This document shows positions 14,299-45,653 of a stretch of DNA of 64,000 nt, piece by piece. Where the stretch lies: the NCBI GenBank assembly GCA_030690305.1, contig JAUYHB010000027.1, positions 79,670-143,669 of the forward strand. Direction: 5' to 3'. A program made the position numbers and the translations under genes. Position 1 is the stretch's first letter, and each line of letters starts with the position of its first letter. The notes under the pieces were generated by a model. That model was given only the letters and a program-made list of their open reading frames with translations, did no database searches and had not been told where the DNA came from. Origin of the DNA: a bacterium (GTDB lineage Bacteria; Patescibacteriota; Minisyncoccia; Phycocordibacterales; JAGLPS01).

Positions 14299-14331
14299 CC
14301 GCCTTTCCTTTGTTTACCACGTTCGTTTTCT

Positions 14332-23485: not shown

Positions 23486-25432
23486 TCACACCATTTTGAC
23501 ACCAAAACTTTCAAGCCATCGCTGGATTACGCCTAAATGCTTTTCCCCCAGCCCTCGGTTACCTGTTTCCCACCTTGCCAACGTCCCCGGATCAACGCCT
23601 AAACGCCTCGCCAGTTGTGCTTGGGACAGGCCTAGGGTCTTCCGACAATGTATGATTTGCTCTGTGAGTGTCTGGGCCTCTGGCAATGGATTGTAGCCTA
23701 AGAATTCAATGATCTTGGGAATAAAGCGGATTTCGGGTTCGGTAAGCCCTAGTTCCCAGTGGCAGATGGTCATTTCATCGGCGCCAATTTGTGCGGCCGC
23801 CTGTTTCTGGAACAGCCCAAGGTCTAACCTGCGCTTCTTAACATGGTCTCCGATGGTGGTAAGGCTCTTGGGATAGGCCGGATCAGGCGGCTTTTGGGCG
23901 GTACGCCTGATATGGCAAAAAGGCAACGCAAGGATGTGGTTCTGAAGCTCTTTGGCCACTTTCTTAGTGGAGGGCAAATAAAAGAGGTTGACTTCCACTT
24001 CATCCTTCCCAATGACAATGCTTTCCGTAATGTTCTCTATAATCTTGCGTTTCTCCGCAAATTCAAGCCGGGACCAGTTCCCGTACAACCCCTTTCCCTC
24101 AGCAAGGATTTCATCCGATGAGAGGTAGTTAATCTTCAAGAAGTCGATTTCGGCCTGAACGCGCGGCATCTCATCTTCCAGTTGCTTTTCTTTCTCCTCC
24201 AAGGGTAAGTAGCGCTTGCCGAACCCTTCCTTGGTGATCTGTTTGGCCATATACAGGTCATATGTTTCATCCATTTCCTTTTTAATCTTCTGATACTCCC
24301 TCTCCAAGGCCTGCATCAGTTCCGCTTTGTCCTTGATGGTGTCTTCCGCCCCGTGAAGGTACTTCTCTATATCCTCAGGGGACATGAAGAACCCTTTCAG
24401 TTCCTCAAGGTAGATTTCCTCAAGGTCGGAAATAGTGATTTTGTTTCGGCACTTGCGGCATACGTATTTGTTGGGGTAATTGGAAAGGACGTACATCTGA
24501 CCCTTGCAGGCGCAGACCGCATATCCGGCAAACAACTGTACGGCCGTTCTCGATACCCGTTTTCGTGACTTTCCCTGTTCCTCAAGAATGTGATTGCATC
24601 GCTGCCACAGTTCGGGAGAAATGATGGGCTCGACTTCCGTGAAAACCCAGTCTTTCTCCGGCTTTACTTCCCAATGCCTCTTTCTATCAAGCGTTTTACT
24701 GTAATTGGCGCGGTGCAGTCCTTTAGCAGTGGAGTCTCTCAAGAGCCGGTCAACGGTCGTGTCCGAGAATTTTGAATTGTTCCTCGTTCGATAACCGGCT
24801 TCGTTCAAAAGACGCGCAACAACCTTCTTTCGCCTGTGTTCCAAGAAAAGCTCGTACATCTGTTTTCGAATCGGCACCTCGTTCGGAGCTGGGATAAGTT
24901 TCTTGTCCTTCCACTGATAGCCAAAAGGCGCCGCTCCCCCCAAGGGTTTCCCCAATTTTGCCCTGATGGGCACGGAGGCAGCGACGCGTTCCGCAATTTC
25001 ATCTCGTTCCCATTGGGCAAGCGCACTAATCATGGTATACAGGAGGCGTCCGGCGGGACTGCTTGTATCGATTGATTCTTGCAAGCTGATCAAGTCAGCA
25101 TTGCACTCTCTAAAGATTTCGGCGAATTCCAAAAGTTCTTTGGTGTTCCGTGCAAGCCGAGCGAGTTTGGAAAAAATAAGGCCGGTGATCGTTCCCTTGC
25201 GAACGTCGCTTAACATTCTCTGAGTTTCTGGATGATTGAAGACGGTCTTCCCGCTCACGGCTTCAAGATGATACACTGTTTTTACGTCCCACCCCTTCGA
25301 TTCGGCGTAATAGCTGGCTCGCTTTTCATGGTGCTCTGGGCTCTCTCCTTTTGCCTGATCTTCGGTCGATACTCTGATCCATATGCCGACTTGCTTTTTT
25401 AATCCATTTCCCTCATGTACATTCTTAGGCAT
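23486..25432 (-). CDS. Large serine recombinase (resolvase/invertase catalytic domain plus recombinase domain) with two extra C-terminal XRE-like HTH domains
   Basis: 648 aa. N-terminus VGIWIRVSTEDQAKGES carries the catalytic Ser. C-terminal HTH-like segments are LTTIGDHVKKRRLDLGLFQKQAAAQIG and TLGLSQAQLARRLGVDPGTLARWETG. Confidence 0.7.
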   Translation of the reverse strand: MPKNVHEGNGLKKQVGIWIRVSTEDQAKGESPEHHEKRASYYAESKGWDVKTVYHLEAVSGKTVFNHPETQRMLSDVRKGTITGLIFSKLARLARNTKELLEFAEIFRECNADLISLQESIDTSSPAGRLLYTMISALAQWERDEIAERVAASVPIRAKLGKPLGGAAPFGYQWKDKKLIPAPNEVPIRKQMYELFLEHRRKKVVARLLNEAGYRTRNNSKFSDTTVDRLLRDSTAKGLHRANYSKTLDRKRHWEVKPEKDWVFTEVEPIISPELWQRCNHILEEQGKSRKRVSRTAVQLFAGYAVCACKGQMYVLSNYPNKYVCRKCRNKITISDLEEIYLEELKGFFMSPEDIEKYLHGAEDTIKDKAELMQALEREYQKIKKEMDETYDLYMAKQITKEGFGKRYLPLEEKEKQLEDEMPRVQAEIDFLKINYLSSDEILAEGKGLYGNWSRLEFAEKRKIIENITESIVIGKDEVEVNLFYLPSTKKVAKELQNHILALPFCHIRRTAQKPPDPAYPKSLTTIGDHVKKRRLDLGLFQKQAAAQIGADEMTICHWELGLTEPEIRFIPKIIEFLGYNPLPEAQTLTEQIIHCRKTLGLSQAQLARRLGVDPGTLARWETGNRGLGEKHLGVIQRWLESFGVKMV

Positions 25433-25442: not shown

Positions 25443-28400
25443 TCACTTCTTCAGCTCTTTGAGTTTCTTTAAAGAATTGGCAACGACCCTCACAATCGCC
25501 TGCTCGCGGATTTCTGCGCTGTCAGTCGGGCGATAATTTGTCTTTAATTTATATCCCTTCACCGTCTTTTCGGTGCTCATTGATTTCATCGCGATTTCCT
25601 GCATGAAGGGTAAGAGTTGTTCGGGAGAAAAGAAACACACCCGCTCTCTATCCTCTTCGGTAACTTCCAACGCGATAGCATTTCTTAACTGTTCGAGTTT
25701 TCTGGGATCAGCGGATATTACCGTAACATATTGGAATCCTGCGGACAAACACTTTTTAACGTTGGCCGCCTCCTGATCCACCGGCGTCGTTACGCAAATC
25801 TGGCAGGCGATGGAACACTCCCCTTTTTGAAGCGCGACATCGACGCTTCCTTTGCCGTCGAGAATGGATTTCTCGATCACGGAAAGATACCCCAAATCAT
25901 CCGCCTGTTTTTTTATGAGAAACTGAAGGTACTTATGCTCCCTGCCTCCTCTCCCCGGCTGAACTGGTATGGGAGATCTCTTTCTCTCGGCAATCGCATG
26001 GATCGGCGCGGATTCTCTTGCAGACGGAATGTCTTCTTTTAGAACTCTGACTTCTTCCTTCTTCGGTTGAACAATTGACGGCTTTTCAACTTCAAATTCC
26101 ATTCTCGGTTCAATTGGCAAGTTCTCTCGTCGAATGCCGTATTTCTCTCTCGAAAGAGCGATGATTCGCCGCCGCTTCTCCTCGGCAATCGTCTTGTCAA
26201 CCCTCGGGAGAAGTGCAGTCGTCAGATTGAAATCAAAGTCGGCCCGCTCGATTCGGCAGACAGCCTCTCCGATTCCCAAGCTCTGCATGTCATCCGACTT
26301 GAAAAAAGAAAAACCGTTCTCCAGTTTTCTCGCGTCTTGGTCTCCCAAACGAAAACAAATGCGGGTACACGCGTTCGCAAGCACCGCGCTCGCGACATCC
26401 GGGTCGCGCGCTTCCAACTGCCGTAATTCCTGATGCGCAAGCGTCAGCCCTAAACGATATTTTCGGGCGCCGGAGAGAATAGATGCCATAGAAGGCGTGG
26501 AGAAATTTTGGAATTCATCGATATACAGCCAGAAGTCCCGCCGGTCTTCTTCTCTTGTTTCTTGTCTCCCCATGACGAGCTGATGAAATTTGGAAACGAG
26601 CAGACTGCCGAAAAGATAGGCGTTCTCCTCTCCGATGGCTCCCTGCGAAAGTCTGGCGAGAAGAATCTTTCCGCCGTTCATGATTTCAGCAAAGTTGAGA
26701 CGGTTTTCTTTTTGGGAAACCATATTGCGGATAGGCTTCGGACGAAGAAAAGCGTCAAGCCGGGTAATAATCGGGGCTTGGGGTCTTCCGGACAAAAGCG
26801 GATAAGCACGGGTCCAATAATAGACAACCTCGGGGTCGGTGACTGTTTTCAAAAATTCCGTTCTGAAGGACGGCTCGATGAGAAACCTGCGCAAATCGGC
26901 TAATGTGCCGCCGCGTGTGCTTTCGAGAAATGCGATCACCGCATTCGAGAATACGGATGTCATCTGGTCTCCCCATGCTGTCGAAAGCCTGCGGAAAACG
27001 GCGACGAGATCGGAGGCAAGCAAATTCTTCTCGAGCTCGGAATGCGCGGACAAAATGTTAAAGCCGATTGCGTATTCTTCATCCGATGGGTCGAGGACGA
27101 TGACGTCCTCGAAGCGTTCTTCCGGAATGTGTTCCAATATGGTGTTCACTAAGTCACCATGCGGATCAAGAACGGCAATTCCTTCCCCATTGCGGATATC
27201 CTGCAAAATGAGATTAAGCAGCAACGTGCTCTTGCCGGTACCACTCGCGCCGATTACATGCGTATGACGCACTCTTTGGTTCGAGTTTAAGGTAACCATT
27301 CGAGTCTCGCCGAGATGAACGTTTTCCCCGAGAACCAAGTTATGGTTTAACGCCGTCTTGGGCGCGGCTTTGGTCTTCTTTGCCCTCCGGTTAAGTTTTT
27401 CCGTTTTCACTGAATCCGAGGGCAGATGGACAATGGAAATTAGTTCATCACTATTGAGAATCATGCCGCTTCTTCTCGATTTCCTTGCGATCAAATCATT
27501 CTCGCGGTCTTCTAAACTATACCGTTCATCGTCTTCAAGCGGAATCAATTCGTTGCCGGTGGGATTTGAAAAGACCGACAGACTTCCCGCAAGCGCCTTC
27601 ACGATCTCTCTTGACCTATCCATTCGCGTGCTTCGCGCGGCAATGCGCACAACTGCGGCGTATAAAGGCTTTTCGACTTTTGTCTTGGCTTGAGCGGCAA
27701 AATCCGGGGCGTTCATAAAGAATGGCGTGCCGTCGGGACAGATGACTGCTTGCAAAATGCTTTCAGCCCACGGCGCGCAAACCGGCTCGAAAATCACCTG
27801 AAATACAGCGGCTTCTCCATCCCGCATCTCCGACAATGCTCCCATGATTCCGATAAATGGATCGGGGTCTAACTTACGTGAAGTTGCAAGCGGCAACATG
27901 AACTCCTGAGCAAGTCCGAAATCAACTATGGCAGTCTCTCCATCGCCTTTGACGCCTCTCCATGAATTTCTAAAGAAATCGGAACGGATAGACATGGAGG
28001 CTTCCGGGAAATGCGCGGAGAGCTGGGCCCTTACCTGACCCAGATCACCATCCGAAACGACGATTTGAACCGTGATCGAATCGGACAAACCGATGATTTC
28101 GAAAACAAGCGGGTGCGCGCAATACGACAGGCTCAACAAAAATTGTTCAAAGACTTCTTTGGAAACTTGGGATGCGGCGGGCAGGGTTATCTGAATCTCA
28201 TGAGGCAAAGTATATGACGCCCTGTTGGATTCGATATCAAGCGGTTCCGCCTCTTCGGGAGCATCGCTCGCCGTATTCTTTCTTCGCGAGACAAGCAGAC
28301 CAAACACTTGATCTGTCACGCTACTTAAAAAAGTCTTCCTGCGTCCGTCATCGATGGAGGGTTGGGTTGAGTAATATCCGGGAAACGATACGAACGGAGG

Positions 28401-28517
28401 CTCAGGAAGAACATGAAAATCAAAAGATTGTATTCCTCTGCCCCCATATTCCCATTCGTAAAACCGGCGGGTGGCTTTGACGATTTGCGATTCGTATATA
28501 TCTTCTGCCAATGCCAT
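25443..28517 (-). CDS. FtsK/HerA-superfamily P-loop ATPase (DUF87/VirB4/VirD4-like core) with a ~400-aa N-terminal and ~240-aa C-terminal domain of unknown function
   Basis: 1024 aa. Walker A HVIGASGTGKSTLLLNL, then VLDPHGD, Walker B LYIDEFQNF, and ARKYRLGLTLAHQELRQL (RKYG...Q..QL motif). No N-terminal TM helix. Separated by 10 nt from the recombinase gene. Confidence 0.5.
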   Translation of the reverse strand: MALAEDIYESQIVKATRRFYEWEYGGRGIQSFDFHVLPEPPFVSFPGYYSTQPSIDDGRRKTFLSSVTDQVFGLLVSRRKNTASDAPEEAEPLDIESNRASYTLPHEIQITLPAASQVSKEVFEQFLLSLSYCAHPLVFEIIGLSDSITVQIVVSDGDLGQVRAQLSAHFPEASMSIRSDFFRNSWRGVKGDGETAIVDFGLAQEFMLPLATSRKLDPDPFIGIMGALSEMRDGEAAVFQVIFEPVCAPWAESILQAVICPDGTPFFMNAPDFAAQAKTKVEKPLYAAVVRIAARSTRMDRSREIVKALAGSLSVFSNPTGNELIPLEDDERYSLEDRENDLIARKSRRSGMILNSDELISIVHLPSDSVKTEKLNRRAKKTKAAPKTALNHNLVLGENVHLGETRMVTLNSNQRVRHTHVIGASGTGKSTLLLNLILQDIRNGEGIAVLDPHGDLVNTILEHIPEERFEDVIVLDPSDEEYAIGFNILSAHSELEKNLLASDLVAVFRRLSTAWGDQMTSVFSNAVIAFLESTRGGTLADLRRFLIEPSFRTEFLKTVTDPEVVYYWTRAYPLLSGRPQAPIITRLDAFLRPKPIRNMVSQKENRLNFAEIMNGGKILLARLSQGAIGEENAYLFGSLLVSKFHQLVMGRQETREEDRRDFWLYIDEFQNFSTPSMASILSGARKYRLGLTLAHQELRQLEARDPDVASAVLANACTRICFRLGDQDARKLENGFSFFKSDDMQSLGIGEAVCRIERADFDFNLTTALLPRVDKTIAEEKRRRIIALSREKYGIRRENLPIEPRMEFEVEKPSIVQPKKEEVRVLKEDIPSARESAPIHAIAERKRSPIPVQPGRGGREHKYLQFLIKKQADDLGYLSVIEKSILDGKGSVDVALQKGECSIACQICVTTPVDQEAANVKKCLSAGFQYVTVISADPRKLEQLRNAIALEVTEEDRERVCFFSPEQLLPFMQEIAMKSMSTEKTVKGYKLKTNYRPTDSAEIREQAIVRVVANSLKKLKELKK

Positions 28518-28537
28518 GCAACAATTCCTTCAATGAA

Positions 28538-29167
28538 TCATTTCCACAGGGACTTCATAATCGGTTTGCGTTGATCTTCGGTAAGTCTGATTCCCTTAGC
28601 TTTCGTCACTTCGTCTATGACTTCCAACACTGCTGAATGAACGGCATCGGCGTAGCTATTTATGGCGTCATAGCGAAAAAAAGTAACGGGCCTAAAAAAA
28701 TAATAGTAGACGGCACCAAGGAGAAGAATTTTGAGGACGATAGCATCAAAGTCCGTCAATCCTTTGCTCGCCATGCTTCTCGAAAACCAGACAAGCGAGC
28801 CGATTACTCCGGCAAGAACCACCGATCCCCAGAAGAATCCTAACGATGAAATAAACACATTGAAGAAAAGAACCACGATGACAAGCAGGACAAGCATTTG
28901 AAGAGGAGTAAGACGCGACGATATGTCCCCCAATCTCGATGAAAAGAAGAAGCCAGTCCCGAACGGTGCGGCGCATATGTAGCCGATAAGCCGCTCCCGG
29001 CTTAAACGCAGATACTCACGATTACTGGAAAGCAGTCCCCCTTCTTTCCATTCAACACGTGATATTTCCAAGTTGGGTATTTGACGCCGGGCAATGGCTT
29101 TTTCGAGGAGATCGTAAAATTCTTGAGGGGAAGTATTGAAATTTTCTATAAGGTGATGCCAACTCAA
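28538..29167 (-). CDS. Hypothetical membrane protein (209 aa)
   Basis: Central hydrophobic helices LVLLVIVVLFFNVFISSLGFFWGSVVLAGVIGSLVWF. It ends 20 nt upstream of the ATPase gene. Confidence 0.4.
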   Translation of the reverse strand: MSWHHLIENFNTSPQEFYDLLEKAIARRQIPNLEISRVEWKEGGLLSSNREYLRLSRERLIGYICAAPFGTGFFFSSRLGDISSRLTPLQMLVLLVIVVLFFNVFISSLGFFWGSVVLAGVIGSLVWFSRSMASKGLTDFDAIVLKILLLGAVYYYFFRPVTFFRYDAINSYADAVHSAVLEVIDEVTKAKGIRLTEDQRKPIMKSLWK

Positions 29168-29518
29168 AATTACATCTATTTTCTCAGCCCGTTGGATTAT
29201 AAGCCCCTTTTTTGAAATGATAACAATTTAAAAATTTATTATACCATTTCTAAGCTAATGAGTTATAAAAAATGATTGGACGGGTGCATCCCCCATACTT
29301 AATAAAGTTTCATGCCTCTTAGTTGGCAAAGTTTTAAGAATAGCTCAGGCATACCAACATTGCAGTGACACGTCTATTTGATTATCGTTTTACATCTAAA
29401 ATTTCGTACTAAAAATTGATTCAAAACCACTTCCCTTTCCTGTATAATTATATTTAAGTTGGTCTTCAATATTTATCTTGTTAGCACATATCCCTATAGT
29501 TTTCCAAGGAGGACAAAA

Positions 29519-30016
29519 ATGAAGGAAGAGGGTTTTTTGTTAACACTTGCTCAGGTTGGAATAGCGTTTGCTGGGTTTAGTGGGCTGATTACTGTATTCA
29601 GGAAATCTGAAAAACCATGGACACTTATTGAAATCGCTGCTGTAAAACTGATTTTGCAGCATACACTTGGACTATTTTGTTTTTCTCTTCTCCCTGTTTT
29701 TATTTTTTATTGGCATGGATCAGAGAAACAAATTTGGAGGATCTCAAGTATAGCGCTGGCTGGATTTTTTTGGGTAGTATTTGTATATAATTGGCAGCAA
29801 CTAAGACGACTAACTAAAGATGGTCACGTTCCGGCACACCCTAAAATGCTAAAACGTATATTTTTTCCCAAAACAGCTGCTGCGGGCATACTTCAAATTT
29901 TTAACATCTTTTTTGACCAATTTCTTCTATATTCCATTGGCCTAGCATGTCTTATTTTTTCGGCAGTAATACAATTTTGGGTTTCTACTATGCGGCACAC
30001 GAGCAACGAGCAATAA
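29519..30016 (+). CDS. Hypothetical multi-pass membrane protein
   Basis: Start chosen at the ATG with SD CCAAGGAGGacaaaaATG; the ORF track begins at 29459. Several hydrophobic segments. Confidence 0.4.
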   Translation: MKEEGFLLTLAQVGIAFAGFSGLITVFRKSEKPWTLIEIAAVKLILQHTLGLFCFSLLPVFIFYWHGSEKQIWRISSIALAGFFWVVFVYNWQQLRRLTKDGHVPAHPKMLKRIFFPKTAAAGILQIFNIFFDQFLLYSIGLACLIFSAVIQFWVSTMRHTSNEQ

Positions 30017-30021
30017 AAAAT

Positions 30022-30056
30022 AACTGCTTACTATGAAGCAGTTATTTTTAAAATTT
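30022..30056 (+). terminator. Rho-independent terminator
   Basis: AACTGCTT-actatg-AAGCAGTT followed by ATTTTTAAAATTT, 6 nt after the stop. Confidence 0.5.
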
Positions 30057-30063
30057 CGGCTAC

Positions 30064-30168
30064 TTAATCGTAGTAGTTTTGACCTGTGTAAAGCATATAA
30101 ATGCCCGATCCAATTTCAAATACGATAAAGACGCCACAAATTATCTTCACTATCAAGGGTAATTCCAT
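30064..30168 (-). CDS. 34-aa hydrophobic peptide (type I toxin-like or leader peptide candidate)
   Basis: Manual translation gives MELPLIVKIICGVFIVFEIGSGIYMLYTGQNYYD. Strong SD GGAGGAG 4 nt upstream of the ATG. Below the ORF-track length cutoff. Confidence 0.35.
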   Translation of the reverse strand: MELPLIVKIICGVFIVFEIGSGIYMLYTGQNYYD

Positions 30169-30174
30169 TACACT

Positions 30175-30242
30175 CCTCCTCTTTGGCAGTTACAGCCCAC
30201 ATGCGTGATTGCATGTGCAGCTTTTTTCTGCCAAAGAGGAGG
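30175..30242 (-). promoter_or_regulatory. Perfect 15-bp stem (CCTCCTCTTTGGCAG / CTGCCAAAGAGGAGG) enclosing an inner 7-bp hairpin plus T-tract. On the minus-strand transcript it sequesters the SD of the small peptide ORF.
   Basis: Arms at 30175-30189 and 30228-30242. Inner CACATGC-gtgatt-GCATGTG followed by CAGCTTTTTTC (reads as a plus-strand terminator). The SD GAGGAGG of the peptide ORF is part of the stem. Confidence 0.45.
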
Positions 30243-30272
30243 GCCTTCCCAAGAACACAAAATCCTTTCTTA

Positions 30273-30301
30273 ATCAAAGCATACTATCAAAAATTTGTCA
30301 A
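30273..30301 (-). promoter_or_regulatory. Sigma70-like promoter for the small peptide transcript
   Basis: Minus strand TTGACA (30296-30301), 17-nt spacer, TTTGAT (30273-30278). Confidence 0.35.
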
Positions 30302-30396
30302 TACCACGAGGAGGATCGTTCTTAGAAAATAAAATCCAGCCATATAGAGTCCCCATTTATGTTTAGATAAATTTTTAAGAGATTAAAGAATTGTGT

Positions 30397-30430
30397 CCCC
30401 TTCGTAAATGCAGTAGCATTTACGAAGGGG
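30397..30430. repeat. Perfect 15-bp palindromic hairpin CCCCTTCGTAAATGC-agta-GCATTTACGAAGGGG
   Basis: Seen directly. No adjacent convincing ORF. Confidence 0.4.
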
Positions 30431-31364
30431 AAGAAAACCCAAGGGGTTCTCCAAGGGGAAATTTTCAACGCATTTTTTGGCGCGTCCAATTATCCACTAT
30501 TCAATATGGTTCGTCATTGAGCCAGATACCAAGAGAAAGGTTTGCGACTTGTGGAAAAATAGGCTGTACCTATTTTCAATGTGCCCCTCTGCGAGGAATA
30601 AAACATCCCGCTATTTGTCACATTGCAAACGCCTAACTCTCAAAATCTCTCCGGCTCACTGATATAACTCTGCAGTGTATTTGTCCGAAAAACACAGATG
30701 GAGGCTTCTATCTATAGTTTGATCATTCCAGCCCCCTTGCCATTGCCTGCCGGTAAATGCAAAGAATAACTTCTTCGCCGGCCTTTCGGCCGCACGCAAT
30801 GGCAGCGACCTAGAATTCGATGATCTCTAGTTCATCGTCTTTACTTTCCGTGCCAAACGACTTCTCCTCTAACGAAACAATTTCAAATTCTTCATCCGGC
30901 ATAGAAGTAAAGCGGTTGGTTATTAATCTCGACCTTTCCCCCTCTTCTTATGCAAGGGAGTCTACAGATGAGAGCTGGGGTTTAAATTGATAATAAGTGG
31001 GTTCCCTTGTTTCTCTCCTCTGTAGGCTTCCATGCACAAAAGCCCAACTGATCTAAATTCAGCTGGGTTTGGAAAATTTTTAACGTCTCTAAAGTCTTAT
31101 TGTGCGACGTACCAGAGTTATCCACAGTTGTCACATTCGGGGCTACTGTCAAGCACTTCCCCTGAAGTTCATCCGCCATTTCTCAAATCCGACGATATGC
31201 GCGAAAAATAAAAAATTAATAATAATTTCTTTTTCTGAAGAAAAAATTTCAGAAGTTTTTAAAATTTTTGAGAGAAAGAAGAGGGAGTATAAAAACAAAT
31301 GTGTATTTCCCGCCACCTTCCCCCTCCCCCGACAAGGATACCGGGGAATTGTCTGTACAAAAAA

Positions 31365-31394
31365 ACCGCTACGTTAATTTATAAACGTAGCGGT
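31365..31394 (-). terminator. Rho-independent terminator for 31401-32015
   Basis: ACCGCTACGTT-aatttata-AACGTAGCGGT flanked by A7/T7 runs. Confidence 0.5.
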
Positions 31395-31400
31395 TAAAAC

Positions 31401-32015
31401 TTAAGAACGAAGAGAATTCAGAAACCTTTCCTGCATCGACTTTTCATAGTGACTATCCGCTTCCTGGCCCGCACTGATATTTTCCTGAAACACCTTTCCC
31501 GTCCTCAGGTCATCAAGGGCATATGCAACCATTTCTTCAATGTTGCCTTTAGTCACGAGCGGAAGAGACTGCCCCTTTCCCTTTTCGGAATAATGCAGTC
31601 GATTGACGACATACTGCAATCCAAAAGAAAATGCTTTTCCGAGCCCGGAGTATGAAGGGACATAGAGACTTACCCCTTCCGACCTGTTTGAAAGAACACC
31701 TGTGTTTGAAATGCCGTCATAGTGGATTTTGAACTGATAAAATCCCACGGTTAAAACCGAGAACAAACTACGGCAGTGGTTGAAAGCCCTATCTTCCGAG
31801 GGGGTGGGAATGACGCGCAGGAGATACCCCCTGTCTTTCATAAGGTTTCCTGACAGTACCGAAGAATCACCCAAGATTTTCGGGTGACGAAACAGTTTAA
31901 TACATATGTCGCCAGGACATCCCGTACCCGGTTCGGCGATGAGGATGTATCCTCTTTTGAAAATAAGCTTTGTTGCTATGCTTCCTACATTATTTTTGGT
32001 AATGATGGTAAACAT
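31401..32015 (-). CDS. Hypothetical protein (204 aa), no recognised domain
   Basis: ORF with its own downstream terminator. Confidence 0.35.
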   Translation of the reverse strand: MFTIITKNNVGSIATKLIFKRGYILIAEPGTGCPGDICIKLFRHPKILGDSSVLSGNLMKDRGYLLRVIPTPSEDRAFNHCRSLFSVLTVGFYQFKIHYDGISNTGVLSNRSEGVSLYVPSYSGLGKAFSFGLQYVVNRLHYSEKGKGQSLPLVTKGNIEEMVAYALDDLRTGKVFQENISAGQEADSHYEKSMQERFLNSLRS

Positions 32016-32144
32016 TCGCCCTCCTTTGTGCCCGTTAGTATTTGGTTATTGTCATGGAACTTTGACTAGGGCACATTCAAACACGGGCCCAGGGAAATTG
32101 CAACAAAAAACCCCGCCGTTTCCAGTAGGGGTTTTTTGTTTAGA

Positions 32145-32540
32145 TTAGTTCTTCGCTATCTCATCCGCGAGGGTAAACTTTGCCCAACATGGAGAGGATG
32201 ACATCCACGGGCGTGCCCCTTCTCTCTCATAGAGGTCGCGGGCATAGGCGAGGTTGCCATCAAGCGTATAAATGTCCAATCCCAATTTTTTTGAGCGTTC
32301 AAGGTGATAATATTCGTTAATCTGCATCACCCCGACATCGGCACGGTTCACTTCTCCACGAAGAATTTTACCGCCCTTATCATACTGACGAAATCGAGAC
32401 TCACAGTACGCAATCTTGGTCATCACGGGTGTGTCGACAAAGTAATGGCGCACATAGAGTTCAACGTTCGTAGCCTTCTCCAACTGTTCCTTCTCTTCCT
32501 TTTTCACCTGAGTAACGGCGGAGGTTTCCACCCCTGCCAC
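32145..32540 (-). CDS. Lytic transglycosylase (SLT-domain) protein, apparently N-terminally truncated (GTG start, no signal peptide)
   Basis: IAYCESRFRQYDKGGKILRGEVNRADVGVMQINE matches the SLT catalytic ES...GLMQI pattern. In frame upstream there is no ATG, and a TAG lies about 28 codons up. Confidence 0.45.
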   Translation of the reverse strand: MAGVETSAVTQVKKEEKEQLEKATNVELYVRHYFVDTPVMTKIAYCESRFRQYDKGGKILRGEVNRADVGVMQINEYYHLERSKKLGLDIYTLDGNLAYARDLYEREGARPWMSSSPCWAKFTLADEIAKN

Positions 32541-32874
32541 AGGAGAATCGGGAACGATAGTGTTGAACGAGTCGGGAATTTGAGTATTGGTTATATTTGA
32601 AAGAGCGAAGATAATGCTAAGTGCGGTAAGTTCTAAAATAGGCTAAATTTTATTTTGTAAAAGGCAACTTTCGCTTTGGTCTTATCCCCTGCGGAATGAG
32701 ATGTTGGGCGAAACGCCTCTGTCCTGCAAGCCTCCGGAAGAATCAAGAAAGTTTTTTCTATTTCAACCGAAGCGGGCTTTTAGGAAATGAAAAAATCCAG
32801 TTCTTCACTGGACTTCTCTTAATCATAGCAGATTTTAAGAAGAGTGTCAATCCCCTTTTTGTTTTATAATAGAA

Positions 32875-32898
32875 GATACGGCTTAACAAAGCCGTATC
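32875..32898 (-). terminator. Hairpin terminator downstream of the PspC-domain gene
   Basis: GATACGGCTT-aaca-AAGCCGTATC. Confidence 0.35.
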
Positions 32899-32920
32899 TC
32901 CCCTACCCTGCCAAATCAGA

Positions 32921-33121
32921 TTAAACTGCCTCTTCCGGCATAATGACCCAGGCTACGAAATAGGCCAAAATCATCGGAAAAACACCCGTTACAACACCCA
33001 AAAGGAGTGTTCCGAGGCGCACAAGAGTCGGATCAAGCTCATATGTCTCCGCAATACCTCCGCATACACCCCCCAGAATCTTGGTTTTAGTTGAGCGGTG
33101 CAATTTTTTCTTATTTTCCAT
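32921..33121 (-). CDS. PspC-domain membrane protein
   Basis: KKLHRSTKTKILGGVCGGIAETYELDPTLVRLGTLLLGVVTGVFPMILAYFVAWVIMP matches the PspC domain signature. Confidence 0.7.
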   Translation of the reverse strand: MENKKKLHRSTKTKILGGVCGGIAETYELDPTLVRLGTLLLGVVTGVFPMILAYFVAWVIMPEEAV

Positions 33122-33175
33122 TAAATTTGTATTAAATTAACAATCTTCTATCATCGCTGGCATTCTAGCACAAAA

Positions 33176-33204
33176 AACAGCCTTTTCGCAAAGAAAAGGC
33201 TGTT
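33176..33204 (-). terminator. Rho-independent terminator after the small membrane protein gene
   Basis: AACAGCCTTTTC-gcaaa-GAAAAGGCTGTT with a flanking T-run on the minus strand. Confidence 0.5.
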
Positions 33205-33217
33205 TGAAACTATTGTC

Positions 33218-33400
33218 CTACCGAAGGGGAATGGTGGGAGTAAATGAGTTGCCCAGAAAGTTTTGAGACTTTCCAAGGGCGAACTGAAATGTTTTCAGGA
33301 ACAGGACAATGGTCTGTTGTATTTCCGAAAAGATGTCGGGAACAAGAAACTTGAGGAGGATGATAAGCAACCCAAGTCCCAAAACTCGTAATATTCTCAT
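33218..33400 (-). CDS. Small membrane protein (60 aa), paralogue of 33952-34107
   Basis: MRILRVLGLGLLIILLKFLVPDIFSE... is similar to MTTILRVAGFIFLVLAFKQFFPDVFDG. Confidence 0.4.
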   Translation of the reverse strand: MRILRVLGLGLLIILLKFLVPDIFSEIQQTIVLFLKTFQFALGKSQNFLGNSFTPTIPLR

Positions 33401-33607
33401 AGAGAATGGTTTTGAGAGGGACTTGTATCGCAGACGACTATCTGCGACTGAGGCTTAATCCGCCTACTCCCCCTCTATACCGAAGGCTTTATAGAAACCT
33501 GCGATACAGAGAGGGTTTCCTCGTTCACTATCTTTCGAAACCTCAAAGAACTACCTGTAGAATAGCACGAAATTAACAAAAAATCAAGTCTGTTTTTAAT
33601 AAAAAAA

Positions 33608-33642
33608 GACCGGCGGGTTATGAGCCCGAGGCCGGTCTTTTT
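33608..33642 (+). terminator. GC hairpin plus T5, terminator-like
   Basis: GACCGGC...GCCGGTC followed by TTTTT, preceded by A7. Confidence 0.35.
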
Positions 33643-33878
33643 GGAACGGATACCTCTACAGAGAAGAACCACCGGACGAAACAGCATTTCAGACAATTGA
33701 AACACTCAACGTCGTGCTACTTCCTAAAGTATACAGTTTTTATTAAAAAAAGGTCAAGAAAAAAGGCCGGAGGGGGTGTCTATTCCTTAGCTTATGGCTT
33801 CGATATAACCGCCTTTGCCTTTTCCCCTCCAGCTTCCTGCATCCTCATTCAGTATACATATTTTTAAATAAAAACAAA

Positions 33879-33910
33879 CCACCCCTCCGCCTGTTACAGC
33901 GGAGGGGTGG
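33879..33910 (-). terminator. Rho-independent terminator
   Basis: CCACCCCTCCGC-ctgttaca-GCGGAGGGGTGG with TTTGTTTTTATTT following on the minus strand. Confidence 0.5.
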
Positions 33911-33951
33911 TGTTAATAAAAGTTACCGAACTACTGTGGGCTCCCAGTTCC

Positions 33952-34107
33952 CTATCTCGCGATAGAAGGAATGGGGCTCGCTTGGAGGAAGTCGGGGCCT
34001 AAAAGCCCAAGCATCGCTTTCTCCATCCCGTCAAACACATCCGGAAAGAATTGTTTGAACGCCAGGACGAGGAAAATGAACCCCGCTACCCGTAATATTG
34101 TCGTCAT
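33952..34107 (-). CDS. Small membrane protein (51 aa from the internal Met), paralogue of 33218-33400
   Basis: The ORF track gives 33952-34158. The internal start MTTILRVAGFIF aligns with the paralogue. Confidence 0.35.
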   Translation of the reverse strand: MTTILRVAGFIFLVLAFKQFFPDVFDGMEKAMLGLLGPDFLQASPIPSIAR

Positions 34108-34320
34108 TTCTTTGGACAGAAGAGACTTCACACGGTGCTCGACGCCCACACACCGCATGCGGAAGATTCATCCCTTGATGAAATTCATCTTTCGATGAGC
34201 CACTCCTCTGCAATTCCAATAGTACCACTTTTCAAGCCCTTCGTCAATTACGAATCACTTTTTGGCAAAAGTCAAAAAGGGCTAATTTTGCTTTAAATGT
34301 TCTATACTTAAAAAATACTT

Positions 34321-34953: not shown

Positions 34954-35421
34954 CTATTGAGTAGGCGGTGTTGATACTCGGGACGCTCCCCCAATTTGAA
35001 CTGTTTGAGCGGTTATACTGCCATCTTGGTTCGCCGTACCAGTAATAACAATTTGTTCACCGGTTTTCAAATCGTCTGCCGAACCAACTGTGTTTTCTGA
35101 TATTTTTGTACTTTCCGAAAATAGGATAATCTTTGAACCTCCGTCCTGCAGTTTAACGGTAATACTCTGTTCGTCTTTTGAAATAATTTCTCCCGTAACA
35201 AAAGAAGAGCCTCCCCGCGTACCGTTTCCTTGCATCACTATCCCCACATTTTCACCCAACTGTTGCGTACGCTCTTGCCGCTCTTCGGCGGAAAGATTGG
35301 AAAAATTACCGCCTTGAAATGTCGCGGCAGTATTGTTTTGTGCATACTTCATGCCCCCGAAAAATGAAGCGCTTCCGACAATGACTACTCCGACTACGGT
35401 TCCTGCAATGATTTTATTCAT
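34954..35421 (-). CDS. Membrane-anchored/secreted hypothetical protein (DUF5666-like beta-rich C-terminus)
   Basis: N-terminal TM, then Gly/Thr-rich beta-like segments. Confidence 0.35.
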   Translation of the reverse strand: MNKIIAGTVVGVVIVGSASFFGGMKYAQNNTAATFQGGNFSNLSAEERQERTQQLGENVGIVMQGNGTRGGSSFVTGEIISKDEQSITVKLQDGGSKIILFSESTKISENTVGSADDLKTGEQIVITGTANQDGSITAQTVQIGGASRVSTPPTQ

Positions 35422-35452
35422 AATTTTTTCTTTATTGTTTAATTTTTACTGA

Positions 35453-36676
35453 TTATTCGTATCTTAATGCTTCTATCGGATTAAGCGCCGCCGCCCGCCG
35501 TGCCGGATAATAACCGAATACTATGCCGATAACCGCCGACACGCCAAAGGCAAGAAGAATTGAAAAAATAGAAACCTCCGTTTGAATAAGTCCTAAAGCG
35601 GTAATCGTAAACGATATCCCCCACCCCAGGACAACTCCGACAAATCCTCCAACAAATGTGAGCATAATTGCTTCCGCGAGAAATTGAAGACTGATATCTC
35701 TGCGTTTTGCACCAATGGCTTTGCGCAGGCCGATTTCTCTCGTCCGTTCGGTAACGGTCGTGAGCATCATATTCATAATGCCGATGCCTCCCACGAGAAG
35801 CGAGATGCCAGCCACGGCGGCGAGTAAAATAGTAAATGTCTGCGTGATGCTTGAAGCGGTTGAAATGATGTCTTCCTGATTCAAAATACTGAAATCCGCC
35901 TGCGTGGAGTCGGAGATTTTATGTCTCATTAATAAAAGGTCGGTGATATCCTGCGCCACCTGTTTCATAACGTCCGCGTCGGCAGCTTGCACGTTGATGC
36001 TGGTTACGTACTTGTCTCCCGTAAGATACCGTTGGGCGGTAATAAGAGGAATGTATATTTGGTCGTCCTGGTTTGTGAAACCGGAACCTCCCTTTGTTTC
36101 AGTTACGCCAACAATTTTGAATTGCAGCTGGTTGATTCGGATTGTTTGTCCTATAACAGAAGCGCCTTCTCCGAACAAATCATCGCTTACGGTGGGTCCG
36201 ATTACGGCGACTTTTGACCCCGAAGCGTTATGCGTATCTGAAATGAACGAGCCTTCGGCTATGGCGACATTGCGCACCGCAGGATAACTTGAAGTAACGC
36301 CAACCACGGACGTATTCGTATTGGTGCCTTTTGCTGTCACCTGATAGCGGCTGGAAACTTCTGGCGAAATAGCGTTAACCGATGAAACTTCGGACAATAT
36401 CGCTTCGGCGTCTTCCAAAGTAAGCGTTTGTGCCGAGCCGCGGCCTGTTGATGCGCCGAATCCTATCGTACGCTGCGCACCGGGTGAAATTTGAATAAGG
36501 TTTGAACCGAGAGATTGTATGCTTGATTGAATCGTCCCTTGTGCCCCCGTGCCAATAGCGACCATCGTGATAACGGAAGAGATGCCGATAACAATGCCGA
36601 GCATGGTAAGTCCCGACCGGACTTTGTTTCCTGAAAGGGCTGTGTATGTTTCGCCTAAAATATCGGAAAATTTCAT
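35453..36676 (-). CDS. ABC transporter permease, MacB/FtsX family
   Basis: 407 aa: N-terminal TM, large periplasmic domain, three C-terminal TMs. Confidence 0.6.
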
Positions 36677-37386
36677 TGGTTTTTTTGGCCGACTTTTCGG
36701 CGAACATGCCGTTTTGAATCGTCAACAATAAGGCCGTCCCGAAGAGAAATGATGCGCTCCGCGTGTTCGGCAATATCATGTTCGTGAGTAATAAGAATTA
36801 TCGTGCGTCCATGCTCTTTATTAAGACGGTCAAAGGTTCCGAGAACGATTTCCCCCGTTTTTGTATCGAGATTTCCCGTCGGTTCGTCGGCAAGAATCAT
36901 CGTCGGGTCATTCACCAAAGCCCGGGCAATGGCAACGCGTTGAATCTGCCCGCCGGAGAGTTCGTTTGATTTATGTTCGAAGTGTTCGGAAGTTAAGCCT
37001 GCGGCGATAAGGGCTTTATGCGCACGCTGTAGCCTTTCCTCTTCGCCGATTCCCGCATATATTAAAGGAAGAACGGTATTGCGTACGACGGTTGTGCGCG
37101 GAAGAAGGTTGAATGACTGAAATACAAAGCCGATGTTTTGGTTACGTATTTCCGCCAATTCGTCATCGGAGAGCTGCGAAACGTCTTTGCCGTTGAGATG
37201 ATATGCGCCGGAAGTCGGCGTGTCGAGGCATCCCAATATATGCATAAGCGTTGATTTGCCCGAACCCGAAGGTCCCATAATTGCGACAAACTCACCGTCC
37301 TGAATGGTAAAAGAAACTCCCCGAAGCGCTTGAAAAGCGGTCTCTCCGGATCCGTATGTCTTGGTAACGTCGCGTATTTCTATCAT
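36673..37386 (-). CDS. ABC transporter ATP-binding protein (MacB/LolD-type)
   Basis: Walker [11 protein letters not shown], signature [15 protein letters not shown], Walker [12 protein letters not shown]. Confidence 0.75.
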
Positions 37387-37392
37387 ATTTTG

Positions 37393-39180
37393 TTAGCGGG
37401 AAATGGATGTGCCGCTCCGTACACCTCCACCGCCTATAAGCGATGGCGCACTTTGTGTTGTTGTTTGGGCCGTGCCTGAGGCAATAGTTCGCACGACAAT
37501 CTGTTGTCCTTCCGATACTCCGGATAGTATTTCCGTATTTGTATCATCAGTGAGGCCGATTTCCACGGGAATTCTTTCCGGTGTAACTGCCGATGGCACT
37601 CCCTGTGTACCGCCTGTCACCTGGAGAGCGGGATTGAATACCTGCACATAATTCATGCCACTTTGCGTCACAATCGCGCTTGCGGGAACCGTGAGCACGT
37701 CTTGCCGTGCCTCGGTAATAATGGAAGCGTTGACGGTCATCCCCGGTTTTATCCTTTCATCCTGCGTATCAAAAGAAATCTTAATCGCATAGGATACAAC
37801 GCCTTGCGAAACCGTACCTACCGCATCCATTTCCACAACCTCACCAGTAAGCGTAAGGTCCTCTACCGCATCAAATGTCAGCGTTACTTTGTTTCCGAGT
37901 TTTATTTTTGCCGCATCGACTTCATTGAGAGAGAGTGAAGCTATTTTTTGATTGGTAATAACAGTTGCCGCTGCAGTTCCCGTTGACACCGTATCAAACC
38001 GTTTGATATTTAAAGATGTGATTACGCCGCTAAAAGGTGCCGTAATAGTATAGTTTGCAAGATTGTTTTTAAGCTCTTGCAAACTGCGTTCCTGGTCGGA
38101 AATACTATATGCACTTGATTGAAGGCTGATTGGATTTTCGCCTGTGGGATTACCGATTTTGAGAATTTCCAAATTTCTTTCATCGTCACGTATAGATTTT
38201 TTTGAGGCATCAAGAGACTTTTGTTGGGCTAGAAGCGAACTCAATGTGCTGTTTGTAGTTGCAAGATAGCTTTTTGCATTCGTACGCATAGTGGTAATTG
38301 CAGAATTTACAGTGGTATTGTGCTGATTAGCATAATCGATTGCGGTATCAAGAAGATTGAGAACGCTTTGAAGCGCTTGGGCTATCGCGGTCGTGGTATC
38401 AATTGATTCGGTAAGAATTTTCTCAAGATCATCGCCGCTCGAGTACCGTGTAAGTGTTTTATAATTAATCAGGCCCTTGTCGTATTTACCTCTGGCAATA
38501 GAATGATCGCTTTTGGCCGTGTCGGCAAAATTATTGAAGGTCTCGTATCCCGCATCGTTGACCTGAACCACGTTTATAATAACATCCACGTTCCATTGGG
38601 ACTTACTGGGGCTTAGGTCATATCCATACAATACGTTGTAAAGCCCAGTAACAACGGTGGGTAAATTTAAATACGTGTCCGACAGTGTGTTAAAAGTATC
38701 GTTGTATGTTGAAGTGAGTTCCTTTTTCGCGTCATCAAGCGCTTCATTTGCTTTATCAAAATCAATAGGAGCTTGCGCGGAATCTTTTTGGAATTGTAGT
38801 TTTGCTTGTGCGAGTGACTGTTCGGCGTCCGCAATAGACTGTTTCGCATCCGTTGCATCAATTGAAGCAAGTGCCTGGCCCGCGTACACCGTGTCCCCTG
38901 CTTTTACTCCAACCCAGACAATGTCGCCACCGGCTTTAGGTTTTATGTCTATCGAATCGGAAGAGGAAACCTGTCCTGAAGCGGAAACTGAGGCGATAAC
39001 CGTGCCTCGCGTTACCGTTCCGAGGACATAACGAGTCTCGGTTGTTTTACCGCGCATTGCGGCAAAAGCCGTATACCCTCCGTACACGAGGGCCAGCACG
39101 ATTATCACGCTCACGATTTTATGCGCTTTAGAAAACTTAATTATATTGTTAACGATTTTGTATGAGAAAATTTTTTTCAT
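37393..39180 (-). CDS. HlyD/MacA-family periplasmic adaptor (membrane fusion protein) with a long coiled coil
   Basis: 595 aa with an N-terminal TM, coiled-coil region and C-terminal beta domains. Confidence 0.55.
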   Translation of the reverse strand: MKKIFSYKIVNNIIKFSKAHKIVSVIIVLALVYGGYTAFAAMRGKTTETRYVLGTVTRGTVIASVSASGQVSSSDSIDIKPKAGGDIVWVGVKAGDTVYAGQALASIDATDAKQSIADAEQSLAQAKLQFQKDSAQAPIDFDKANEALDDAKKELTSTYNDTFNTLSDTYLNLPTVVTGLYNVLYGYDLSPSKSQWNVDVIINVVQVNDAGYETFNNFADTAKSDHSIARGKYDKGLINYKTLTRYSSGDDLEKILTESIDTTTAIAQALQSVLNLLDTAIDYANQHNTTVNSAITTMRTNAKSYLATTNSTLSSLLAQQKSLDASKKSIRDDERNLEILKIGNPTGENPISLQSSAYSISDQERSLQELKNNLANYTITAPFSGVITSLNIKRFDTVSTGTAAATVITNQKIASLSLNEVDAAKIKLGNKVTLTFDAVEDLTLTGEVVEMDAVGTVSQGVVSYAIKISFDTQDERIKPGMTVNASIITEARQDVLTVPASAIVTQSGMNYVQVFNPALQVTGGTQGVPSAVTPERIPVEIGLTDDTNTEILSGVSEGQQIVVRTIASGTAQTTTQSAPSLIGGGGVRSGTSISR

Positions 39181-39182
39181 AT

Positions 39183-39665
39183 TTATTTAATGGGCGCCTT
39201 CCTTCCTTCAGGCGGTGCGGGAAGAACGCGTATTAGTTTTGCTTCAATTTGAGAATTCTCATTGGGCGACCCCAACACTACGGTAAAATCATCTACCTTC
39301 AAATCGGAAGCGGATATTGTCGTATCAAAATGTCTGATTTGAGTATCGTCCCCAATCAGTATGACTTTTTCAATCTCATCGGGCCCTACCATGACAAACG
39401 TCGGGAGATTGATAGTTACTATCTTCCCCACGGCACCATGCGATTCTATAAAGCCTTCCTGAAGAGGTATTTGAAATGGCCGTGGCCCATGTTCGCCAAA
39501 AGCCCTGTAATAGTTGTCTCCGAAACGGTACGAAAAAGCAGCCTTCCGATATCCGACGAACATACCTGCCTGGAAAATCAGGAGAACTATGAGGGCCAGG
39601 CCTACTCCCACAAGCACTCCCTGAAACGTTTTGGATTGAATAAATTCTTTTAAATTTTTATACAT
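39183..39665 (-). CDS. Membrane-anchored hypothetical protein (DUF5667-like)
   Basis: 160 aa, N-terminal TM. Confidence 0.35.
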   Translation of the reverse strand: MYKNLKEFIQSKTFQGVLVGVGLALIVLLIFQAGMFVGYRKAAFSYRFGDNYYRAFGEHGPRPFQIPLQEGFIESHGAVGKIVTINLPTFVMVGPDEIEKVILIGDDTQIRHFDTTISASDLKVDDFTVVLGSPNENSQIEAKLIRVLPAPPEGRKAPIK

Positions 39666-39673
39666 ACAAATGG

Positions 39674-40099
39674 TTATGAGTGGCTAAATAATGGAAATAA
39701 TCCATTTCGTGTGTTCCGTGCAAATACTTTAATTGAGACGAGTAATGCCACAATGGCCACAAGGGAAACGGTAATCCCCATGAACGGAAGAGATTCCAAA
39801 AGAGAGAGAGCAAACTCTTGCGAATGTGCGAGTACGATGTCCGTATCCGAGAACAGAAGGGAGAAATAACTGTAAAAGCTTGACTGATGCAATTGGGCAA
39901 TTAAAGACTGAATAGAAAATATAATGCCAACAGCTGAAACGGGGGTTACGACAAGGGACCAAAGAAGATACCTTTGCGCCACACGACGTTCTTCTTTTCT
40001 GATATCTAAAAGGATATTGGCCTTAAGCCTTTGAGGTACGTCCAGTTTTTCCGATTCCTTCATACCTACTATACGAAAAAGGGATGCATTTTGGTGCAC
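39674..40099 (-). CDS. Putative anti-sigma factor (small single-pass membrane protein)
   Basis: Immediately downstream of the ECF sigma gene; TM helix. Confidence 0.35.
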   Translation of the reverse strand: MHQNASLFRIVGMKESEKLDVPQRLKANILLDIRKEERRVAQRYLLWSLVVTPVSAVGIIFSIQSLIAQLHQSSFYSYFSLLFSDTDIVLAHSQEFALSLLESLPFMGITVSLVAIVALLVSIKVFARNTRNGLFPLFSHS

Positions 40100-40127
40100 C
40101 CTTTACTCAATCTGTTTATTAGAAAAT

Positions 40128-40703: not shown

Positions 40704-40719
40704 AATTATACCACAAAAA

Positions 40720-45633: not shown

Positions 45634-45653
45634 AGTTCGTATATTATAGCCTA

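Follow-up and report, generated by a model that had tools for sequence, protein, structure and literature searches.

A membrane protein and an ATPase with a predicted PD-(D/E)xK domain as a probable backbone gene pair of comM-targeting integrative elements

A stretch of 64,000 nucleotides from contig JAUYHB010000027.1 (assembly GCA_030690305.1, Patescibacteriota), referred to as the window throughout, carries three adjacent minus-strand genes for a membrane protein (Mem), a 1024-aa ATPase and a large serine recombinase. Mem and the ATPase are very probably a backbone gene pair of mobile elements and not a stand-alone defence system. A more specific reading, to which we give roughly an even chance, is that the pair is a conserved two-gene module in the backbone of widespread integrative, probably mobilizable elements, with the ATPase as the transfer motor. 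An earlier note on this DNA, made from the sequence alone, had considered both a role in defence and a DNA pump of a mobile element for the ATPase, and the second option is the one favoured by the context described here.

Results

The three genes and the candidate promoter are located as follows, all coordinates being those of the window.

28538-29167, minus strand: membrane protein gene (Mem), 209 aa, TTG start
25443-28517, minus strand: ATPase gene, 1024 aa, ATG start
23486-25432, minus strand: large serine recombinase gene, 648 aa
29196..29223, minus strand: sigma-70-like promoter candidate for the three-gene unit, TTATCA-16-TATAAT (10/12 matches), just upstream of the Mem gene

The intergenic gaps reported in the earlier note were reproduced exactly. 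The gap between Mem and the ATPase is 20 nt long and holds the Shine-Dalgarno-like sequence GAAGGAA; the gap between the ATPase and the recombinase is 10 nt long (GGAGGGCGCC) and contains a Shine-Dalgarno-like GGAGGG, which implies translational coupling of these two genes. No terminator-like sites above chance were found between the Mem, ATPase and recombinase genes. The promoter candidate is a consensus match alone, and such sites are no more numerous in the region than expected from shuffling.

Gene neighbourhoods were compared across 84 related loci from about ten phyla (labelled with an L below). The sources were species-representative genomes (80 loci), the surroundings of individual homologues, and viral contigs (three loci). 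Loci were annotated by tblastn and clustering of open reading frames (ORFs), with flanks of ±10 kb. A Mem homologue was found directly upstream of the ATPase gene, on the same strand, in 68/75 loci with enough flank, contrary to the possibility raised in the note that homologues are never co-located with the membrane protein. A large serine recombinase gene lies on the same strand within 700 nt downstream in 26/71 loci and farther downstream in 11 more (37/71 in total), and a tyrosine integrase is present in 11 loci. This strong synteny backs the single transcript that had been proposed. In every arrangement seen, the pair adjoins one end of the element, corresponding to the attP side of the circle.

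Among loci with at least 9 kb of upstream sequence, the recurrent, usually co-oriented neighbours are genes for a DnaG-type primase, ArdC, RadC and a 95-aa protein. A 426-aa ATPase, which is a paralogue (~35% identity) of the central domain of the 1024-aa ATPase, is encoded in 18/58 loci, and a Replic_Relax/PF13814 (MOB-C) relaxase is found within 10 kb upstream in 11/58. The gene order in L017 is 426-aa ATPase, MobC, primase, 95-aa protein, RadC, ArdC, variable genes, Mem, 1024-aa ATPase and recombinase; L031, L064 and L078 are variants of this order (RadC not detected, ArdC earlier), and in several loci from Bacteroidota, Planctomycetota and Gemmatimonadota the 426-aa gene stands immediately before Mem. 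The cargo around these constant backbone genes varies and includes type I and type III restriction-modification (R-M), AAA_15/21 and nSTAND genes. Relatives of this kind are bounded by integrase-generated junctions and have a relaxase and, in the flanks covered, no mating-pore genes, as an integrative mobilizable element (IME) does.

The 426-aa ATPase gene usually adjoins the MOB-C relaxase gene, as in L087 (842-2122 and 1-792) and L088 (3714-5993), and was also recorded in L017, L030, L031, L032, L051, L064, L078 and others.

The recombinase was assigned to the Pfam families Resolvase (1.4e-29), Recombinase (1.9e-17) and HTH_3 (3.7e-15), with two HTH_3 domains at the C-terminus, and its NCBIfam matches are CcrB- and XisF-like. 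In at least 10 loci from different phyla, its gene adjoins a comM (Mg-chelatase-like) ORF that is cut exactly after ...A-A-M-N-P, and in six other loci the 3' part of comM, starting from C-P-C-G, adjoins the opposite end of the element. Acidobacteriota, Verrucomicrobiota, Bacteroidota, Desulfobacterota and others share the identical insertion point (A-M-N-P/C-P-C-G). The two elements whose ATPases are most similar to that of the window (75% and 64% identity) are both inserted in comM, and host genes follow past the junction.

Fused recombinases of 620-650 aa align colinearly through ...Q-x-N-x-x-x-A-L-P-F-C.... When the element is integrated in comM, the recombinase ORF leaves this alignment directly behind Q-R-N and runs on into comM in antisense, and at the other junction a separate double-HTH gene of 145-160 aa has (M/L)-P-F-C as its exact start. 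The recombinase-side product of integrated copies is ~500 aa long and abuts the 5' half of comM, and the double-HTH gene abuts the 3' half. Recombinase-side junctions were found in L007, L011, L019, L027, L033, L046, L055, L087 and L088, and HTH-side junctions in L023, L028, L049, L060, L079 and L084. From the comparison of fused and split alignments, attP is therefore placed inside the recombinase gene at codon ~500, and integration into comM, as read from these alignments, splits the gene into a ~500-aa recombinase and a double-HTH protein. The unsplit palindromic attP in L001 is GGCAACGCAAC-CTCAGA-GTTGCGTTGCC, and the corresponding site in the window is listed here.

23922..23950, minus strand: attP-like site in the recombinase ORF at codon ~500, GAGCTTCAGAACCACATCCTTGCGTTGCC; right arm TTGCGTTGCC intact, left arm diverged

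Splitting of the recombinase at attP might act as a directionality switch. An attP within the integrase gene is a logic known from SSV1-type tyrosine integrases in archaea; no report of it for natural serine recombinases was found in the literature.

Two loci show further arrangements around comM. In L007, a separate double-HTH gene (1834-2322) lies 12.8 kb from the comM-abutting recombinase and is not flanked by a comM 3' half, a sign that this end may have undergone tandem accretion or received a secondary insertion. In L032, an intact comM (13184-14713) follows right after the ATPase on the same strand with a gap of 58 nt and the recombinase is absent; possible explanations are a rearrangement, a join made in assembly or the capture of a comM gene.

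The ATPase was divided into the following parts. The sequence motifs quoted in the earlier note were all confirmed in its translation.

27333..28517, minus strand: N-terminal domain (NTD), aa 1-395, Pfam DUF8128 (PF26449), fold possibly like that of the VirB4/TrwK NTD
26193..27332, minus strand: P-loop ATPase domain of coupling-protein type, aa 396-775, from Pfam and PDB profile matches
27225-27251: Walker A motif GASGTGKST, aa 423-431
aa 449-455 of the ATPase: VLDPHGD
aa 665-672 of the ATPase: YIDEFQNF, with Walker B LYIDEF at 26511-26528
aa 685-701 of the ATPase: RKYRLGLTLAHQELRQL
25959..26192, minus strand: helix (aa ~776-793) and variable Pro/Glu/Lys-rich linker (aa ~804-847), predicted disordered
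25443..25958, minus strand: PD-(D/E)xK domain and alpha/beta tail (aa 854-1024) with the stop codon, from the structure model and Foldseek
aa 893-907 of the ATPase: DVALQKGE...IACQI

The centre of the ATPase matched four Pfam families above cut-off, namely TrwB_AAD_bind with 47.4 bits (cut-off 20.5), T4SS-DNA_transf with 34.7 (20.1), TraG-D_C with 26.9 (22) and DUF87 with 26.7. The best NCBIfam matches are TraD- and VirD4-like models, and the curated equivalog models (TraD, TraG, CD1115) score at most 48 bits against cut-offs of 250-647 (SXT_TraD 48 against 366). A PDB search with a profile of 25 homologues placed TrwB (1e9r) and IcmO/DotL on top and returned no VirB4 chains. With TrwB and IcmO/DotL as the best solved relatives, these Pfam and NCBIfam matches and no VirB4 among the hits, the ATPase is, at the level of sequence, a divergent member of the VirD4/TrwB coupling-protein type within the FtsK-HerA superfamily. 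The superfamily assignment made in the earlier note is thereby kept and refined. All three motifs, Walker A, Walker B and the arginine motif, are preserved, and K429, D667, E668 and R685 are invariant in 69 orthologues. No convincing transmembrane segment was detected by hydropathy, in agreement with the note; two marginal windows (aa 126-155) are confidently modelled beta-strands.

Homologues of the ATPase form more than 3,779 clusters at 90% identity. Nearly all of them are ~1,030 aa long, and their full-length identity is 50% or more despite their origin in different phyla. Carriers include Acidobacteriota, Verrucomicrobiota, Planctomycetota, Bacteroidota, Gemmatimonadota and candidate phyla, with named examples in Mucilaginibacter sp. 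OK098, Lacibacter luteus TTM-7 and Brevifollis gellanilyticus NBRC 108608. In public databases they are annotated as 'type IV secretion system DNA-binding domain-containing protein'. An HTH_17 domain (PF12728, excisionase/AlpA-type) is carried by the homologues P0022, P0056, P0063, P0104 and P0111, and it is fused at the C-terminus in P0063 and P0111, the two that were inspected.

The first ~400 aa, which had matched nothing recognisable in the earlier note, correspond instead to DUF8128 (a precomputed annotation), a domain that on its own matches 2,505 representatives at 50% clustering. An AlphaFold2 model of aa 1-395, built from 18 sequences, reached a pTM of 0.77 with a core pLDDT >85. When this model was searched against the PDB with Foldseek, the best match was the NTD of TrwK/VirB4 from the R388 secretion system (8rtd_h, E 1.4e-5, TMq 0.43), and TrwK/VirB4 chains (also 8rtb and 7o43) make up most of the top 18 matches over ~360 aligned columns. 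No Pfam match to CagE_TrbE_VirB was obtained with the ATPase or its isolated NTD, and VirB4_CagE (TIGR00929) scored 19.9 bits against a cut-off of 643, in the P-loop part alone. In VirB4/TrwK, the NTD is the part that contacts VirB3.

The C-terminal part begins with a linker of ~45 disordered residues (pLDDT <50 at residues 30-73 of a model of aa 775-1024), and the linker region shows a mean identity of 17% among orthologues. The domain that follows has a core pLDDT >90 and the order H-E-E-E-H-E, and all its significant Foldseek matches are PD-(D/E)xK nucleases (R2 RLE, R.BspD6I, AF1548, Bax1, Can2, EndoMS, XisH, Hjc). Candidate active-site residues are conserved among 69 full-length orthologues: E882 and D893 in 69/69, E906 in 66/69, E916 in 68/69 and K922 in 67/69. 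The structure model thus points to a flexibly tethered PD-(D/E)xK fold that may be active as a nuclease. The nuclease-like character suspected in the earlier note gains support from this model; its statement that the last ~240 aa match nothing holds for Pfam, where the domain has no family, and fails at the level of the fold.

The C-terminal domain was also considered as a fused MOB-C relaxase. Homology was rejected with hhalign against 11 MobC proteins (probability 0.3%); a likeness by analogy is possible, the MOB-C relaxases having the same fold.

Mem consists of a conserved cytosolic N-terminal region of ~85 aa, two to three strongly hydrophobic segments at aa 91-158, as placed by hydropathy alone, and a C-terminal tail of ~50 aa. 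It matches no family in Pfam, NCBIfam, PADLOC or PHROG. The window protein is 96% identical to its homologue in L087 (~9470-9982), compared with only 75% for the ATPase and the recombinase, which suggests a recent recombination mosaic within the module.

Distant homologues of the ATPase were found on a Bacillus subtilis plasmid (886 aa) and an Embleya plasmid (812 aa). Both are encoded immediately upstream of a replication-relaxation (MOB-C) gene and within transfer clusters that contain TcpE and TcpF (a true VirB4-type ATPase, 843 bits) or PrgI; they occupy the slot of the coupling protein. Transmembrane segments are absent or weak in them. Their alignments with the window ATPase cover aa 139-734 (24% identity) and aa 276-773 (31%), which means that part of the NTD is common to these transmembrane-less Gram-positive coupling proteins.

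Phages carry relatives as well: phrog_5156, whose members come from SPO1-like phages, phage G and further Bacillus phages, matches aa 277-744 of the ATPase (E 8e-63). For the MobC-like partner family the PHROG match is phrog_9381, annotated as 'replication initiation by nicking'. A phage packaging ATPase was rejected as an identity for the protein: a search of 2.9 million viral contigs gave 3 loci only, all with the same integrated-element layout.

The copy in the window

The homology between the window and L087 extends from 80 nt upstream of Mem to about codon 500 of the recombinase (77% nt identity). The window recombinase gene is unsplit and continues in frame into its two HTH_3 domains, so the window copy is not integrated through the attP in this gene; no comM fragments were found in the window. 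One probable element edge is seen. This copy is a reduced or differently integrated variant, made up of the three-gene set and defence-type cargo. Further features of the surrounding DNA are listed below.

30344..31127, minus strand: conserved non-coding stretch upstream of the module, shared with L087 (4074-5197) and L088 (7766-8497)
19565-23416, minus strand: nSTAND_NTPase5 protein, 1283 aa
14332-15075, minus strand: TraT surface-exclusion lipoprotein homologue
9830-10873, minus strand: EEP nuclease
7384-7689, minus strand: group II intron RNA domains (Rfam RF02001, 140 bits; RF01998, 73 bits)
1651-6839, minus strand: type III R-M pair

Within the non-coding stretch, the block 30725-31127 shares 96% of its 403 nt with L087, where the coding backbone shares 77%, and was found only in L087 and L088, the two closest elements. 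The stretch opens with an invariant CTGTGGATAACTC (DnaA-box-like TGTGGATAA, ~31115-31127) and contains conserved hairpins, including GGCCGAAAGGCC, and a perfect stem of 16 bp at 30396-30431; no Rfam family was assigned to it. It could be an element edge, an att site, an origin, an oriT, a regulatory region or an RNA. In L087 and L088 the block stands just after the tyrosine integrase gene, and in the window the homology ends at 31127 beside host-like DNA, which suggests that the window element may have entered through the site of that integrase.

The ~5 kb at 29168-34320 have a very low coding density with short ORFs that belong to no family, apart from a 131-aa ORF (32145-32540) with a weak lytic-transglycosylase-like match and a PspC-like 66-aa ORF. 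The boundary between element and host probably lies in this interval. Beyond it, 34954-51539 is ordinary chromosome with MacB/ABC/HlyD genes, a sigma factor, peptidases and ribosomal protein L9. A true VirB4 with a partial type IV secretion system (T4SS), which the earlier note had named as the finding that would overturn its view, was rejected: no VirB4 sequence model matches the ATPase, and the co-directional genes at 35-52 kb are chromosomal.

On the other side, downstream of the recombinase, the island 1651-23416 consists of co-oriented minus-strand genes, several of them ORFs without a family; its G+C content fluctuates from 0.32 to 0.49, and the same element probably carries it as cargo. 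The group II intron remnant is flanked by the type III methylase gene on one side and on the other by a 437-aa ORF (8086-9399) with no Pfam match.

Comparison with known systems

The window ATPase belongs to the same family as VirD4/TrwB/TraD (R388 TrwB 1E9R; IcmO/DotL), and its homologues take the coupling-protein slot beside a relaxase. It differs from VirD4/TrwB in that it has no transmembrane domain of its own, Mem being separate, and in its 395-aa DUF8128 domain and C-terminal PD-(D/E)xK domain; it is not linked to a T4SS or a relaxase in the window and scores far below the NCBIfam equivalog cut-offs. The likeness to VirB4/TrwK and VirB3/TrwM lies in the order of NTD and P-loop domain and in the small membrane protein gene directly before the ATPase; VirB4/TrwK also gave the best structural match for the NTD model. 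Unlike VirB4/TrwK, the protein gives no sequence-level VirB4 signal, its fold match is moderate (TM ~0.4), and no mating-pore cluster accompanies it in the window; Mem resembles VirB3 in gene order alone and matches no family.

Transmembrane-less coupling proteins annotated as 'DUF87 / T4SS DNA-binding domain', from Bacillus and Streptomycetaceae plasmids, are homologous in part of the NTD and in the ATPase domain. They differ in having no nuclease domain, no Mem-like neighbour and complete Tcp/Prg-type transfer clusters.

Among mobile elements, the streptococcal IME_Class_8 combines a compact VirD4 coupling protein, MobC and a serine integrase, and PF13814 is classed there as MobC relaxase (Coluzzi et al. 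2017, PMC5357655). The elements described here are similar in being pore-less, in their VirD4-type ATPase, in PF13814/MobC (in related loci) and in a serine integrase that inserts within a gene. They differ from IME_Class_8 in the two paralogous ATPases, Mem, primase, ArdC and RadC, in the comM target and in their diderm environmental and candidate phyla radiation (CPR) hosts, and the window copy itself has no relaxase.

HerA-NurA, Sir2-HerA, DUF4297-HerA and DndH/DptH likewise join an FtsK-HerA ATPase to a nuclease-fold effector. Unlike in those systems, the HerA models match weakly (E 1e-4 to 7e-3) and in the P-loop region, the NTD looks VirB4-like and not like a HerA HAS-barrel, and the gene belongs to the backbone and not to the cargo. 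In archaea, CedB and CedD are two paralogous FtsK-HerA ATPases with VirB4-NTD-like domains that move DNA together with membrane proteins and without a full T4SS (PMC11868833). The match of the window ATPase to the CedD NCBIfam model is weak (21.7 against a cut-off of 600 bits), and the Ced proteins differ in having transmembrane helices of their own and in being chromosomal, damage-induced and outside integrative elements.

Discussion

If the ATPase is the transfer motor of these elements, the co-transcribed serine recombinase would excise the element as a circle, and the motor would then translocate the element DNA. By analogy with VirB3-VirB4, the VirB4-like NTD may replace the transmembrane anchor and dock the hexameric motor on Mem, and the tethered PD-(D/E)xK domain may bind or cut the DNA substrate. 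In related elements the motor would act with the 426-aa ATPase and the MOB-C relaxase. DNA would presumably be exported through a helper T4SS, since none is encoded nearby.

Several observations weigh against this role. As the earlier note had already stated, the window contains no T4SS or mating-pore genes, and none were found in ±10 kb of the related loci examined, so transfer would need a helper or another route. A relaxase, the 426-aa paralogue, the primase, ArdC and RadC are all missing from the 64-kb window, and in relatives the second coupling-protein-like ATPase stands beside the relaxase, which means that the large ATPase may do something else. The resemblance of the DUF8128 domain to the VirB4 NTD is at fold level and of moderate strength (TM ~0.4, with a model from 18 sequences), and a literature search found no publications on DUF8128. 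The plasmid homologues have neither a nuclease domain nor a Mem-like neighbour, and a nuclease domain is not known as a feature of coupling proteins. At the putative active site, position 906 is Q in the window protein and its closest relatives and E in most others.

A different function in the same elements would be to assist excision or integration, with the ATPase as a translocase-nuclease that controls the serine recombinase (compare FtsK-XerCD and XisH/XisI-XisF) or processes the att junctions. This would suit the 10-nt translational coupling of ATPase and recombinase, the recombinase immediately downstream in 26 loci, the constant position of the pair beside the att end of the element and the excisionase-type HTH_17 at the C-terminus of some homologues; the C-terminal fold is also like that of XisH (2okf, rank 20, E 1.6e-2), and the recombinase is XisF-like. 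About half of the loci, however, have no serine recombinase within 10 kb downstream, and in others the opposite strand carries a tyrosine integrase gene. By textbook account, large serine recombinases integrate without a motor and their known directionality factors are small proteins. The likeness to XisH is at fold level alone, with no XisH Pfam match, and the membrane anchor would be left unexplained. We regard such a helper as rather unlikely. A part in replication or maintenance of the excised circle, with a helicase-like motor and a nicking enzyme for rolling-circle start or membrane segregation, appears to us to have only a slim chance, the smallest given here to any reading. The phage homologues (phrog_5156), the match of the MobC-like partner to the phrog_9381 nicking family, the recurrent primase and the DnaA-box-like motif that opens the upstream non-coding stretch would agree with it, but the plasmid homologues lie within conjugation clusters and not in replication modules, ArdC and RadC are by textbook knowledge typical of conjugatively transferred DNA, and neither a membrane partner nor a VirB4-like docking domain would be required.

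Anti-phage or anti-plasmid defence or exclusion by a membrane-associated ATPase-nuclease, comparable to HerA-nuclease systems and DndH/DptH, is less likely again than a helper of excision. The fusion of an ATPase to a nuclease fold with conserved candidate catalytic residues fits this view, as does the surrounding island, which is rich in defence genes (type III R-M, nSTAND NTPase, TraT). The best PADLOC match is mad8 of MADS (E 6.9e-18), followed by weak DndH/HerA matches, and DptH appeared in the PDB search. These PADLOC matches, however, cover the generic P-loop domain alone (profile positions 26-259 of 314; the mad HMMs were built from HHpred/PDB homologue alignments), and no other mad or dnd gene was found among the neighbours. 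The pair stays constant beside variable cargo and co-occurs with relaxase, primase, ArdC and integrases, and an identity of ~50% over the full length across phyla is typical of backbone genes and not of defence cargo with its fast turnover. A known defence system was rejected on the same generic ATPase matches, with HerA/DndH at E 8e-5 or weaker, and the HerA-type defence role entertained in the earlier note is accordingly not borne out.

A bolder reading would have Mem, the 1024-aa ATPase-nuclease and the 426-aa paralogue form a minimal machine for DNA export or import that is independent of a T4SS, with the tethered nuclease generating or processing the strand. It would parallel archaeal CedB/CedD or Streptomyces TraB. 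We consider it improbable, if a shade less so than the replication role. If true, small integrative elements could move from cell to cell unaided, not only in diderm environmental phyla but in CPR bacteria too.

To return to the pair as backbone module with the ATPase as transfer motor, the broad class of such proteins is familiar. New is a split motor of coupling-protein-like type with a nuclease fold and a membrane partner, in integrative elements that target comM; no description of this element family was found in the literature. Thousands of genomes and metagenomes carry the ATPase under an automatic T4SS label. Its architecture, with a putative VirB4-like dock, a coupling-protein-type motor, a predicted tethered nuclease and a split-off anchor, amounts to a natural experiment on how coupling proteins dock and handle DNA, and a recombinase with a highly conserved comM target and an internal attP could interest genome engineers. 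Canonical conjugation genes are rarely recognised in the soil and freshwater phyla concerned, and tools keyed on VirB4 or relaxases miss such elements. If the ATPase is the transfer motor of the comM elements, this would account for the spread of defence islands and other cargo through these phyla.

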